Notes: generated by a model from the letters alone, not told the origin. DNA of 63,062 nucleotides, filler included, from Reclinomonas americana ATCC 50394 (GCA_048213135.1; 17 parts of 17 records of this genome joined end to end with filler, not necessarily neighbours in it); one strand, 5' to 3'; counted from the whole stretch's first letter, positions 32,363 through 48,922 are shown. Made by a program: numbers and translations.

Positions 32363-35300
32363 CAGCTGGTGCGCGTGACCGGCATCCTGCATCGGCACCG
32401 CCTCACTATGCACGACATGAGAACGCGCAGCATGCAGCTCTGGCACGTCAAACACACTCACCTCAGCAGCAACTTCAACCAGCCATCCTGAATGCCGGCA
32501 AACACGTCCGCCGCACGCCACTCGAGTTCCTCGCGAGTGATAGTGTAGTCCATCAGTGTCGGGCCTGCGAAAACGGCTGTAAGCATCGTGGTGTTGAAAC
32601 TCTTCTCCACCTCACAACGAAACGAGTGACAAACAGACTGCCGTTCACCGACAGCAGCTGCAGGTCGACGGGCTCCACCGGCCCACTGCTGGCTCCGAAG
32701 AGCGCCAGCATGCCACGACGACGGAGCACCTTGAGGCCATGCAGGAAGGTGTCCTTGCCGACGCCATCGTACACCACGTCCACACCGCGGCCTGCAAGAG
32801 TGTGAGCAGGGATACCTCACCCTCACTAGTTTCTACGATAATAGTGCTCATCACTCGTTCTCTTTTTCTCACATGCACACACTCCATCCTTCAACCGAAT
32901 CGATTCGGTCTTTGCTGCCTTCCCTTTAACCATTCACACTCACTGCCCTGCTCATATGAATACAAGCGCATATTCCCTCACTGGCGTCATCGACATTTCT
33001 ATGCGTGCGGTCTTTGCTGCATCCCCTTTAACCACTCACACTCACTGCTCTGTATAATATGAATGCAAGCATGTATCCCCGCATGGACTCTGCTGAGCCC
33101 TCTCTTTCCCTCACACTCACTGGCGTAATTGATTTCTGTGCAAGTACACACGCATACTCACTTTAGTTCAACAAATCTCGCTCTCATACCAATCAATTCT
33201 CTTCCCACTCAGTCGCTCATTCTCACACTTCCCTCTGTTTTACATGCATCCGCTCTCCTCCCCTTCAGCCTTCCCTATCTCATTCCCCACCACCCACTAT
33301 CCAAGCACGCACTCACTCATGCGCCAGCATCAACCCGTTCTCCTCTGAATCTCAAACTCAACACACCCTTTCCTCTCCCTCCCTCCTGCCTCTTCCCCCT
33401 CTCCCTCCCCCTCTCCCTCCCCCTCCCCCTCCCCCTCCCCCTCCCCCTCCCCCTCACCCCCTCCCCCTCACGCACCAGCCGTAATCTCCTTGACGCGATC
33501 CACCCACGACTCCTGCACGTAGTTGACGACATGATCGCAGCCGACCTGCGCGGCCTCGGCGGCCTTGGCATCGGTGGACACAGTGCCGATGACGGTGGCG
33601 CCTGCGAAGTGGGGAGGGCGGTGAGAAAACAAGAGACAATGATATTGAGCGAGATAAGGAGGCTGACAAAGACGCGGCAAGAGGAGGAGAGAGAAATACA
33701 GAGAGACAGTGACTCTCGCAAAGAGGCCTGACAACTCTGTCTGGATCTGTGCATGATTTCTCTTTCTATGCGTGCTTAAATGATTGAAACAAGGAGCAAT
33801 TACAACTCGCTGCTGCAACTGCCACTCACGCTGTCATTTCTCTTTCCATCTTTCTCACTCCTCTTTCACACCAAAAGTCATCGGAGACTCTGGAATCCCA
33901 ATCGCGCCGACACTGGCGACTTCCATTGTCTCACGTTTTTCTGTTTTTTTCGTCTCACTATCTCCTGCGACTCATCGCTACACAATTGAGGGTTCGACAT
34001 CAACAATAAAGGGAGCAGGCACAACAAACAGTGCAAAGTGCCAGAGCGTGTTATCTGCAGCTGTCATACACCAATCTTGTCGCTACCCACTATCTGTCTC
34101 TTCCTCTTACTCTTCCTTTCTCCAGACCCTTCCCCTTTCCCCCTTTTCCCCATNNNNNNNNNNNNNNNNNNNNNNNNNNNNNNNNNNNNNNNNNNNNTTA
34201 ATTAATTAANNNNNNNNNNNNNNNNNNNNNNNNNNNNNNNNNNNNNNNNNNNNGTGCACCACACACGTCTGCCCGGCCTTCAACTCAAACACCGAGTGCA
34301 CCAAGTAATGCGCCGTCATGCCCTGCAACAGCGCCGCCGCCGCCTGCTCCAACCCCACCCCCTCCGGCACGCGCACCAGCGACGCAGCCGGCGCCACCAC
34401 GTACTCGGCGTAGCACGAGGTGCCGGTGAAGGCCACGCGGTCGCCCACCTCAAAGCCCTCCACGCCCTCGCCCAGCTCCTTGATGGTGCCGGCGGCCTCG
34501 CGCCCCTAAGGGGGAGGGAAGTGAGCGGGGGGGAAAGAGGGCAAGGGAGAAGAAAGCGACAAACCAGAATCAGCGGCAGGCCGGCCTTGTTGTACGGCGG
34601 AATGCCCTGGCGGATGTATGTGTCGATAAAGTTGACACTGCGCGAGGCACGCGATGTCAGCGGGAGAAATAGATACGCGGTAGAAAGGATAGAAAGATAC
34701 AGCTGCTTCTGACCTGCGCACAGAGAGAGGCAGAGTGCAAGATGGAGAGAGAGAGAGAGACAAAAGGGACGAGGAACGCGAAGAGAGTACAGCTCATCCC
34801 TCCTGCGCGCTGTCTCCCCATGTGCAAGACTGTGCTTTTGGTCTGTCATCTCCGACCCTATGTCTCGCCCTGTCAGTCAAGGCGAATGGAATGCAAACGA
34901 GATGCACGCAGCTTTTCACACTGCGTCCTGCAACTCGTCACATCTTCTGCGGCGAAGAGCACGAAGGAAACCTGATTGCGTCATACGGAAAGACGCGAAC
35001 ACGTGCGAAAGGAATGCAAAGCAATCTCCCTCTGCTGCCAAAGCCTTGTCTTTCCCTTGCAGAAAGGACAGCTGCTTCCTTCACACTCATCGGAGTGGGC
35101 GAGCGAGAGACCGACAGAAAGAGAGTCAGAGACAGCAGGACCGATTTCTTCGCCAAACCTTGTCTCTCCACTCACAATGGGAAGAGCAGAAAGTGACAGC
35201 AGCTTGCTCTGACACACTGAGCGATGCAAGAAGAAGAGAGGAGAGAATCGGAGACAGCTGAGTGCAATACATGCTGCGGAATGCTTCTCACTCTGTCGCC

Positions 35301-36058
35301 AAAGCCGTGTCTCGCTCATCCCTCTGTGAAGAAGGGGCAGCAGCTTGCTCCATGCAAAACGATGCAAGAGGGAGACAGGAGAGACCGACAGAAAGAGAGT
35401 CGGAGACACCTGTGCAGAATGCAGACTGCAGTCGCCTTGTCTCTCCACTCACTCCTGGCCTTGTTACAGAAAGAGACAGCTGCGTACTCTCACACTGAAC
35501 GACGCAGGAGGGAGACAGGAGAGACCAACAGAAAGAATGTCGGAGACATCGGAATGCAATGAACGATGTTGCAGATTGCCTCTCCACTCACACCAATGCC
35601 TTGTCTCTCAAGTCACTCCTGCCCTTGTGACAGAAAGGCAGCTGTTTGTTCTCAAACTGAACCATGCGAGGGAAAGAGAGGAGAGACCAACAGAAAGAGA
35701 GTCGGAGACAGCTAAAATGCAATGAACGATGTGTCACACTGCCTCTTACTCTGCCACCAAGGCTTTGTCTGCACATCGAAGAGCAGCTTACTCCCACACA
35801 AAACGATGCAGCAAATACACAACACCAAGGAATGCAAGATAATCTCTCATCATTCCCTCCCGCCTTCCCCTCTCCCTACTCCCCTTGTCCTCTCTCCTCT
35901 CCCTTTCCCCCTCCCTCCCTCCTCTGATGACGCAACCCGGCCGCCACCGTCTCCACCAACACCTGCCCCGGCGCCGGCTTCGGCATCGCCACCGCCTTCC
36001 ACACAATGTTCTCCGCCCCGCCGTACTCCTCAACCACAGCCGCGTACATTGTGCTCAT
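32363..36058 (-). CDS. qor: NADPH:quinone oxidoreductase, zeta-crystallin/QorA-type MDR family (final codons in a gap)
   Basis: MSTMYAAVVEEYGGAENIVW...PAPGQVLVETVAAG|VNFIDTYIRQG, REAAG, GDRVAF, AAAALLQGMTAHYL, GATVIGTVST, GVDVVYDGVGKDTF, FGASSGPV, GSLFVTR|PTLMDY. Confidence 0.93.
34950..35800. repeat. Degenerate ~120-180-bp tandem repeat in qor intron 1
   Basis: Recurrent GAGACC(G/A)ACAGAAAGAGAGTCGGAGACA and GCCTTGTCTCT motifs. Confidence 0.75.
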
Positions 36059-47300: not shown

Positions 47301-48922
47301 AATGCCTTGCTGAGTGGCGAAACACAAACAGGCACTCGTCCCACCGATTCGTCACTGGCCAGTGGAGCGTACTTCTTGCCGACCATTATCGCCGACTTGC
47401 CATACACGTGCAGAACTGCGCAGGAAGAAGTGAGTGGAGAAGCGCAGTTTTGAGGAGTTCAGATGTGGCGCGAACACTTTCTCCTTCCACTCTGATCTAC
47501 TGTTTTCATGCACCGCCATACTCTTATCGATTGCTTCCGTCTCTGGTTCACTGCAGTTCTTCCGTCATCCACTCCTTCCGTCTTTCATCCACTACTCTCA
47601 CTCACTTCCTCTGTCATTCACACTCTCTTGCACTTCTCATCCAATTCATCACTCATCTGTTCCTTTGATCACTTACCGCCGGTCATCCCACTCCCTTACC
47701 CCAGTTATTCACCCTTTTGCCTCACTGATCATTTCATCCTGTTCTCGCTCGTCCTCCACTGCATTCATTCTCTGAGCCTTTCTTATCGTTTCAGTCTCTA
47801 ATCCACTCTCATCCACTTCATTTGAAAGTTTACCAATTACCTTTACTCTCTTATCAAACGATTTATCTCTCTGCCGTACCTTTTCTCACCCACAAACGTT
47901 TCCTCTCATGCGCTCATCATCTCACGCTCCTCTTCCACTGCCGTCCTCTCTAATCGACTGTTTTCATACACTGATTTCCCTCCCTTTTCGACTCCTTCCC
48001 TCTCGCTCTGCTTTCTTCCATGCCTCACCCACTGCTGCCCTTTTTCTGCACTCCGTTCTTCTCGTCTGCTCCCTTTCCACTCTCATCCACTCCATGTGCA
48101 CGTTTATCAGTTCTCATCAAACCACTTCCCCCTCTGTCACCCGCCTCCTTCCCTAATCTCATCCACACACTTTCCCCGCTCATTCACTTCTCATCAATTT
48201 GTTTCTCTCAGCCATCCCCTCATTCTGTCCTCTCGAGCATTTCCGCTCTATTCGCTCTCTCATGCTCCCTTCCTCTCATCCGCTCCCTTCCCTCTTCTCT
48301 CTCACCACTTTTCTCTCTCTTTGTCTCACTCACTCACTCTCTCTCTCACCATTCCTCCCATCCATTCCCCTTCTCTCTACCTCAATCCTTTTTTTCTCCC
48401 ATCCCTTGCTTCCCTCCATTCCCACTTCCTCTCTCTCTCCCGCTTCCTCGCCTCTTTCCCTCTTTCTTCCTTTCCCCCCCTTTCCCACCCCTCCCTTCCC
48501 CTTAATCCCCTCCCTCCTCCCTTCCCCATTCATCCCTTTCCCTTATTCTTCCCTAATCGCAGATCTTCGGCCCGGTGATCACCGTCCACCCCTTCGACGA
48601 CATGGAGGACATGCTGACCATGGCCAACTCCACCGACTACGGCCTGGCCGCCAATCTGTGGACCACCAACCTGAAGACAGCGCACAAGGTCAGCGCGCGT
48701 CTCCAGTGCGGTATCGTGTGGTGCGTGTTTGCACTGCATTGTCTCGCTGCACTGTCGTGTAACTTATGATAACGCGCCCGCAGGGTAAACTGCTGGCTGA
48801 ATCGCGACCTGCGGACCCCGTTTGGTGGCTGGAAGTCGTCGGGTGTTGGTCGCGAGGGCGGCGCACATTCGCTCGAGTTCTTCAGCGAGGCCAAGAATGT
48901 GTGCATCATGTTGGACGATTGA
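44377..48922 (+). CDS. ALDH8A1: 2-aminomuconate semialdehyde dehydrogenase (ALDH8A1/AMSDH type)
   Basis: [95 protein letters not shown]. Carries the two substrate-binding Arg motifs (DIPR, RDLR) of this subfamily. Confidence 0.93.

Follow-up and report, generated by a model that had tools for sequence, protein, structure and literature searches.

Gene content of the locus

The stretch of DNA analysed here, hereafter the window, comprises 63,062 bases of Reclinomonas americana ATCC 50394 (GCA_048213135.1) in 17 contigs of 1.1-8.2 kb each that are joined by linkers, and the subject of this report is its region 32363-48922, which bears on the 2-aminomuconate branch of the kynurenine pathway. From left to right, the region holds a qor-like gene on the minus strand, an exon of a Rid-type gene on the plus strand, an ACMSD gene on the minus strand, and, on the plus strand, a gene for an aldehyde dehydrogenase (ALDH) resembling ALDH8A1 and aminomuconate-semialdehyde dehydrogenase (AMSDH). 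The presence of these four genes, with these identities and orientations, had been proposed in an earlier, sequence-only reading of the same DNA, and is borne out by Pfam, PDB and tblastn matches and by splice models. Likewise, the PDB matches of three of the genes, which are of ACMSD, AMSDH and 2-aminomuconate deaminase (AMD) type, agree with the proposal that they represent consecutive steps of the pathway.

Other parts of that description need adjustment. The four genes do fall into two pairs, but only the ACMSD/ALDH pair is intact, whereas the Rid gene is represented by a single exon and qor is missing two pieces. That no unrelated gene lies between them is true for the sequence present, and cannot be judged for the gaps. 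As to the bounds of the region, position 48922 is the last base of the ALDH stop codon, whereas 32363 is a mere contig start.

The ACMSD and AMSDH genes

The ACMSD gene is complete, lies wholly in contig 38349-46503, and runs on the minus strand from an ATG at 43411 to a stop codon at 38497-38499, which is 149 nt past the linker at 38249-38348. A combination of tblastn and splice modelling resolves eight exons (43411-43317, 42099-42015, 41958-41897, 41352-41009, 40356-40195, 39614-39491, 39427-39286 and 38751-38497, the last including the stop codon), with GT-AG junctions at all seven introns and a frame that is open throughout in the splice model. By tblastn, five bacterial ACMSD ORFs (open reading frames) find matches for their residues 1 to ~330 in seven parts of the window. 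The large exon has a Pfam Amidohydro_2 match, and a 115-residue exon compared with the PDB finds human ACMSD chains as the best of 34 matches (E 3e-38), followed by bacterial ACMSD (E 2e-13) and by the LigW, gamma-resorcylate and IDCase decarboxylases (3e-11 or weaker). His-x-His, HPW, AHGGG and SDYPF segments are visible in the translation, and we take these to be metal or substrate ligands.

Two further observations concern this gene. Its last exon (38497-38751, minus strand) continues for ~70 residues past the usual C-terminus as an Asp/Ser/Val-rich stretch for which no match was seen. In addition, while most bacterial ACMSD proteins are just 30-40% identical to the window exon, those of some bacterial or metagenome loci (Saprospiraceae and others: L081, L108, L140, L146, L005 and L016) are 55-63% identical, forming an 'eukaryote-like' group of bacterial ACMSD.

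The AMSDH/ALDH8A1-like gene occupies 44377-48922 on the plus strand and yields an open model of 498 codons in 11 exons. Exons 1-6 are at 44377-44542, 45026-45175, 45459-45604, 45664-45770, 45833-45919 and 45978-46103, and exons 7-11 at 46893-47091, 47149-47269, 47332-47429, 48563-48720 and 48784-48922; all ten junctions are GT-AG, and intron 6 contains the linker at 46504-46603. Five ORFs of the gene have Pfam Aldedh matches, and several lines of evidence place the protein more precisely. For instance, an exon query retrieved proteins named aminomuconate-semialdehyde/2-hydroxymuconate-6-semialdehyde dehydrogenase (JGI names), and the best NCBIfam model for an exon is TIGR03216, a model whose cut-off is out of reach for a single exon. 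In the PDB, exon 3 matches AMSDH chains only (five of five), and the top seven matches of the last exon are AMSDH, with E values of 4e-15 to 2e-12 as compared with 7e-7 or weaker for the next ALDH family. Arginines of the window protein align with Arg120 and Arg464 (PDB chain numbering) of Pseudomonas AMSDH, which are described as the substrate-recognising pair of that enzyme (PMC4286809). Exon 7 contains ELGGK and GQxC segments, which are candidates for the sites of the catalytic Glu (Glu268) and Cys (Cys302) of the ALDH superfamily.

The ACMSD (-) and ALDH (+) genes are arranged head-to-head on one uninterrupted contig, with their ATGs pointing away from each other and 965 nt (43412-44376) between the start codons, a region presumed to be a shared promoter region. 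This physical linkage is the firmest part of the finding. Because ACMSD and a dehydrogenase using its product are divergent neighbours on one contig, chance is not a reasonable explanation for this core of the arrangement.

The AMD-type Rid exon

The Rid-type exon, of 49 codons, lies at 37202-37348 on the plus strand, and corresponds to residues ~5-52 of its relatives, whose length is 140-150 residues. The exon lacks an in-frame ATG; in front of it are a long tract of pyrimidines and a CAG acceptor, and a GT donor follows it. Forty-seven relatives of the 49-residue sequence were retrieved (E 2.5e-16 to 2.3e-9, identity 61-81%), nine of which carry the source name 2-aminomuconate deaminase, including proteins of dictyostelids and of a Myxococcales metagenome-assembled genome (MAG); chytrid, Piptocephalis, Creolimax and Reticulomyxa proteins are among the others, and the best named relatives are from Amoebozoa and early-diverging fungi.

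In an alignment of 22 stand-alone relatives with 53-78% identity, the exon agrees at all 14 invariant and all five near-invariant columns. The sequence-only reading had named beforehand a grouping of this protein with generic RidA as a result that would refute its proposal, and this grouping is not seen. Compared with the whole PDB at E <= 1, the exon has a sole match, 6izh ('2-aminomuconate deaminase', E 1.7e-8), and generic RidA structures give none. Similarly, its relatives score 59.7-93.6 bits on TIGR00004, below the RidA subfamily cut-off of 106.25. Judged by these similarities, the exon is specifically of the AMD type.

Upstream, the divergent region between the qor start codon and the Rid exon (36058-37201) must hold the Rid start exon. 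A speculative candidate is 36115-36210, a 32-codon stretch from an ATG to a GT donor that begins 58 nt from the qor ATG. Downstream, 37349-38248 (+) is the start of a Rid intron, consisting of purine-rich repeats and then a pyrimidine tract that continues into the linker; no Rid-like coding sequence is found in it. The repeats of this presumed intron include an 88-nt purine-rich tandem repeat in 2.7 copies (37534-37764) and CTTCCCC-type repeats (38148-38241). The opposite strand holds a low-complexity ORF of 404 codons (36789-38000) that belongs to no family.

The qor-like gene

The qor-like gene is on the minus strand and is interrupted within the window. Its 5' part consists of exons at 36057-35937 (ATG at 36057), 34637-34565 and 34505-34254, the third of which runs off the contig end at 34254, and its 3' part of exons at 33602-33476, 32791-32624 and 32564-~32462; the junctions are GT-AG. 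In tblastn searches with bacterial Qor homologues, residues 60-144 fall in the 5' part and residues 162-291 in the 3' part, on the same strand and in the same order. Residues ~145-161, about 17 codons that include the nucleotide-binding glycine-rich segment, are absent from the window, at the position of the linker at 34154-34253. Neither 32363-32470 nor the preceding contig gives a match to the last ~30 residues; the last visible exon is followed by a GTGAGT donor, and the last intron runs into the linker at 32263-32362.

Two qor ORFs have Pfam ADH_zinc_N matches, an 84-residue exon is 60-66% identical to bacterial Qor, and the best NCBIfam model is NF008024 (NADPH:quinone reductase). The best PDB matches are Qor/zeta-crystallin homologues of the E. 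coli type (4rvs, 3jyl and 1qor; E 2.8e-15). On these similarities, the product is a generic NADPH:quinone reductase of the MDR superfamily, incomplete in the window, and no feature of its sequence suggests a part in the kynurenine pathway. The E. coli-type Qor/zeta-crystallin enzymes have no described role in tryptophan catabolism, whereas the window qor is the divergent neighbour of an AMD gene.

Order of the contigs

Since two of the four genes are interrupted by linkers and a third is cut at one, the reality of the contig order has to be considered. The 17 contigs are joined by 16 identical 100-base linkers of a six-frame-stop design (44 N + TTAATTAATTAA + 44 N), starting at 7476, 10341, 12110, 13279, 15493, 16876, 21833, 23421, 27354, 29867, 32263, 34154, 38249, 46504, 51871 and 54938; all are fixed at 100 bases, and their length does not give the true gap sizes. 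The studied region spans four contigs (32363-34153, 34254-38248, 38349-46503 and 46604-51870). The sequence-only reading had recognized a single gap, at 38249-38348, and a linker is indeed found there, separating the contig of qor and Rid from that of ACMSD and ALDH; however, two more lie inside the region, at 34154-34253 and 46504-46603, with a fourth, at 32263-32362, abutting it.

Three genes cross linkers in a consistent manner. A GDP-dissociation-inhibitor (GDI) gene on the minus strand spans the linker at 29867 in the correct order and orientation, with Pfam profile positions 16-55 and 52-87 in contig 29967-32262 and positions up to 237-329 in contig 27454-29866. The qor gene spans the linker at 34154, residues 60-144 stopping mid-exon at 34254 and residues 162 onward restarting at 33602, and the ALDH gene spans that at 46504, exon 6 ending at 46103 and the expected next exon beginning at 46893. 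At three further linkers (10341, 13279 and 54938) the same repeat is found on both sides, the flanks sharing 33, 55 and 32 8-mers, respectively, as compared with a maximum of 22 among 240 mismatched flank pairs. On the strength of these three gene crossings and three shared repeats, the contig order is probably that of a real scaffold. True adjacency is thus independently supported at six of the 16 linkers, with conflicts at none.

Purine-only or pyrimidine-only tracts (>=80%) occur at 18 of the 32 contig-end flanks, versus 14.7% of background 100-mers, and such tract-rich contig ends look like assembly breaks within one scaffold. In another test of the contig order, the N-terminal part of an adenosine deaminase gene was sought in the contig preceding 55038 and was not found. 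We consider it very likely that the two contigs flanking 38249-38348 are adjacent. More generally, claims of adjacency drawn from this window need a check of the linkers.

The outer neighbours of the four genes are unrelated to them, with GDI at the left and no recognisable family at the right up to 51870. Elsewhere in the window are genes for a TPR_10/TPR_12 protein (569-2515, -), a protein kinase (14176-15201, -), a BRCT-domain protein (16087-16539, -), an adenosine-deaminase-family protein (55375-55949, +) and a histidine kinase with HisKA and HATPase_c domains (60892-62524, +), all of which are unrelated to the kynurenine pathway.

Interpretation of the gene neighbourhood

We consider it likely that the region, which comes from an intron-rich eukaryote, is a genuine gene neighbourhood serving the 2-aminomuconate branch of the kynurenine pathway. 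In this scheme, ACMSD would decarboxylate 2-amino-3-carboxymuconate semialdehyde, the ALDH8A1/AMSDH-type dehydrogenase would oxidise the product to 2-aminomuconate, and the AMD-type Rid protein would deaminate 2-aminomuconate to 2-oxohex-3-enedioate; the gene of the latter protein is placed tail-to-tail with ACMSD, on a contig that probably adjoins that of ACMSD and ALDH. These enzyme activities are predicted ones. The genes of such a cluster may be co-regulated, and a possible benefit is that unstable intermediates would be kept from cyclising to quinolinate or picolinate.

Several observations weigh against this interpretation, and they concern the join between the pairs, the state of the Rid gene, the range of its subfamily, and genes or sequences that a cluster might be expected to show. 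With respect to the join, the linker at 38249-38348 is bridged by neither a gene nor a repeat, its flanks share one 8-mer, and its fixed 100 bases do not reflect the size of the gap. It could thus be that only ACMSD and ALDH are linked, with the qor/Rid contig misplaced by the assembly or by the window builder, or separated from them by genes hidden in the gap. We regard this as unlikely, given that the independently supported linkers elsewhere in the window reveal no conflict, and that the contig ends inside a Rid intron, with a pyrimidine tract of this intron entering the linker. Moreover, the chance placing of a third consecutive enzyme beside the first two is very unlikely, a point that the sequence-only reading had already raised.

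With respect to the deaminase, the Rid exon alone is below every Pfam threshold, and tblastn with six full-length relatives (E <= 10) finds no further Rid exon in the window, leaving ~95 residues missing; among these is the C-terminal half, which holds an invariant arginine segment and was not found in the window. Weak matches of the Rid C-terminus at 23735-23806 and 62793-62822 were inspected and judged to be chance. Two-thirds of the gene are therefore absent, and the exon, alone and followed by 900 nt of repeats, could be what remains of a decayed pseudogene rather than an exon of a functional deaminase gene. That it is such a remnant is nonetheless very doubtful, as every invariant and near-invariant residue in the alignment with the 22 relatives has been kept, the acceptor and donor of the exon are canonical, and introns of the neighbouring genes reach 1217 nt and have similar tracts. 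If the Rid gene is whole, its remaining exons lie in the gap at 38249-38348.

The AMD-type subfamily also extends to proteins of another kind, in that, of the 47 proteins retrieved with the Rid exon, 16 (P0005, P0010, P0015, P0016, P0021-P0023, P0025, P0027, P0030, P0032, P0034, P0040, P0043, P0044 and P0046) are fused to an acireductone dioxygenase (ARD) domain, as found again in all six that were rechecked, and ARD is not an enzyme of the kynurenine pathway. ARD is an enzyme of methionine salvage, and the fusions may point to a second role of the AMD-type subfamily in some organisms. The possibility that these cupin-Rid fusions are fusions of HAAO with AMD was rejected, the domains being ARD and Rid.

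HAAO, which catalyses the step before ACMSD and with which ACMSD is invariably paired in the clusters of fungi, was not found in the 63-kb window: the best tblastn match with two bacterial HAAO queries has an E value of 0.013 and an in-frame stop. A 3-HAO Pfam match is also absent among the scanned window ORFs (sets of 137, 75, 150, 60 and 90), a scan that short exons could escape and that does not reach into the gaps. Lastly, a comparison of the two divergent upstream regions finds no excess of common 9- to 12-mers over random pairs of window segments, the counts for 36058-37201 versus 43412-44376 being 9, 1, 0 and 0 shared 9-, 10-, 11- and 12-mers, with control medians of 7, 1, 0 and 0.

AMD loci of other organisms and the place of qor

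The preferred interpretation, that of a 2-aminomuconate gene neighbourhood, can be set beside 80 metagenome loci, including some judged fungus-like, and 80 loci of bacterial or archaeal genomes that encode an AMD-type Rid. When the count is restricted to loci that extend for 3 kb or more to either side, an AMSDH-like or ACMSD gene is found within 10 kb of AMD in 50 of 63 genome loci and in 14 of 22 metagenome loci. Because the AMD-type Rid accompanies AMSDH or ACMSD in the surveyed loci, the assignment of the Rid exon as a deaminase gains support. HAAO is present in 42 of the 160 loci.

The same survey bears on qor, which the sequence-only reading had counted as a member of the pathway cluster. 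With eight queries and a threshold of E <= 1e-3, a qor-like gene is found near AMD in just two of the 160 loci, which is about the chance expectation and argues against its membership. In one of the two (L150, a Pigmentiphaga MAG, 8746-11429), qor is head-to-head with AMD-ACMSD, but lies inside a housekeeping run of qor-tpiA-secG. Among the 80 metagenome loci, an MDR gene is found in none except L076.

It is nevertheless possible, if doubtful, that qor encodes an NAD(P)H-dependent ene-reductase (an 'oxalocrotonate reductase') that would act beside AMD and reduce 2-oxohex-3-enedioate to 2-oxoadipate. Such a role would extend the interpretation of the region as a 2-aminomuconate neighbourhood rather than exclude it, and would concern a step that is without an assigned gene in AMD users; in a 2026 review, 'oxalocrotonate reductase' appears as a step name only. 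The suggestion has a basis in gene order, in that at most 1145 nt separate qor (-) from its divergent neighbour, the AMD exon (+), and in the absence from the window of both a meta-cleavage lower pathway and a homologue of a Bacteroidota SDR that recurs at AMD loci. In the Tenacibaculum locus L092, this SDR is flanked by ALDH and HAAO. Of the AMD loci, 55 have pathway neighbours and extend for 5 kb or more to either side; an SDR >=40% identical to that of L092 is present in 16 of the 43 that are without the aldolase/acetaldehyde-dehydrogenase route, as compared with none of the 12 that have it, a pattern of mutual exclusion between the SDR and the meta-cleavage lower pathway. Six Saprospiraceae loci have the SDR directly upstream of AMD and in the opposite orientation, the same geometry as that of qor and the Rid exon here. 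A tentative proposal is that, in eukaryotes with the deaminase route, qor would be an MDR-type, non-homologous counterpart of the SDR that is head-to-head with AMD in Saprospiraceae and in other Bacteroidota clusters without the decarboxylase route. The MDR relatives of the window protein include 1wly (E 5e-11), a 2-haloacrylate reductase, which reduces the C=C bond in an unsaturated acid.

The rarity of qor-like genes at other AMD loci and the generic nature of the protein, with NF008024 as its best family, stand against this proposal. In addition, the analogy with the SDR is positional and not homologous, and the 16 SDR loci (L092-L097, L104, L107, L118, L119, L126, L129, L141, L142, L144 and L147) are all from Bacteroidota and do not represent independent events; in the metagenome set, SDR homologues are near AMD in three of 80 loci, all of them distant or weak.

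Relation to known clusters

The sequence-only reading had described the genes of this branch as unlinked in animals, and knew of no such cluster in a protist. Across eukaryotes the genes are not always unlinked, as is seen from published 3HAO-ACMSD-AMSDH-AMD clusters of Ascomycota and from a published cluster of sciarid flies, and the claim to novelty is weakened by two reports. Martins et al. 2021 (PMC7842363) describe in Ascomycota a '3-hydroxyanthranilate catabolic cluster' of 3HAO, ACMSD and AMSDH, and propose that a recurrent YjgF-family gene in the cluster is the 2-aminomuconate deaminase. Sassi et al. 2026 (bioRxiv 10.64898/2026.06.05.730449) report that an A. flavus protein deaminates 2-aminomuconate, whereas human RIDA does not, and that this AMD is without activity on 2-iminopropanoate. 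In the same preprint, the fungal clusters are described as 5-10 kb in size, with HAAO and ACMSD head-to-head (550 +/- 220 bp apart) and an intronless AMD gene, while animals are described as using ASPDH/AMR, with a cluster that includes AMR in sciarid flies.

The arrangement in the window resembles the Ascomycota cluster in being eukaryotic and intron-containing, and in combining ACMSD, AMSDH and a Rid of the bacterial AMD type distinct from RIDA; in Ascomycota these lie within ~10 kb. Here the three genes lie within 37202-48922, which is 11.7 kb as written, with a gap of unspecified size between AMD and ACMSD. The two differ in layout. In the fungi, HAAO is head-to-head with ACMSD, whereas here ACMSD is paired with ALDH across 965 nt and HAAO is not found in the window; furthermore, the fungal AMD gene is intronless, whereas the AMD gene here has at least two introns and qor as its divergent neighbour.

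In the bacterial nba/amn and tryptophan-to-2-aminomuconate operons, such as those of Burkholderia cenocepacia (cited by Sassi et al.) and of Pseudomonas sp. AP-3 (amn, the source of 6izh), the same three families are adjacent, and of the 85 surveyed loci that extend for 3 kb or more to either side, 64 show linkage of the AMD-type Rid with ALDH or ACMSD. Those operons are, however, co-directional, in contrast to the two divergent pairs with introns in each gene seen here; they usually contain HAAO, and they carry either the decarboxylase/hydratase/aldolase route or, in Bacteroidota, the SDR, with neither route being present in the window. The cluster of Sciaridae, as far as it is described in the preprint, is also eukaryotic and includes ACMSD and an ALDH8A1 homologue, but has ASPDH/AMR, a metazoan reductase, instead of AMD, and includes HAAO and AFMID.

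In a literature search, no such cluster was found described in eukaryotes beyond fungi and sciarid flies, with the qualification that the main text of Sassi et al. covers fungi and metazoa and that its supplements may hold protist data. Of the other sources consulted, a Dictyostelium preprint does no more than name a gene for 2-aminomuconate deaminase, and the Prasinoderma genome paper describes a KYU-HAAO fusion and not a cluster. The arrangement in R. americana is a further example of the eukaryotic cluster type known from Ascomycota, in a different layout.

The fate of 2-aminomuconate in eukaryotes has been settled only recently, in the 2026 preprint, as proceeding by the deaminase in fungi and by ASPDH/AMR in animals. 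Against this background, the linkage of ACMSD, AMSDH and AMD would not be peculiar to Ascomycota, and would have arisen, or been kept, with a different architecture. If the tentative role of qor is true, this gene would fill the gene-less reduction of the deaminase product to 2-oxoadipate; otherwise, the locus would represent an ordinary additional example of the cluster.

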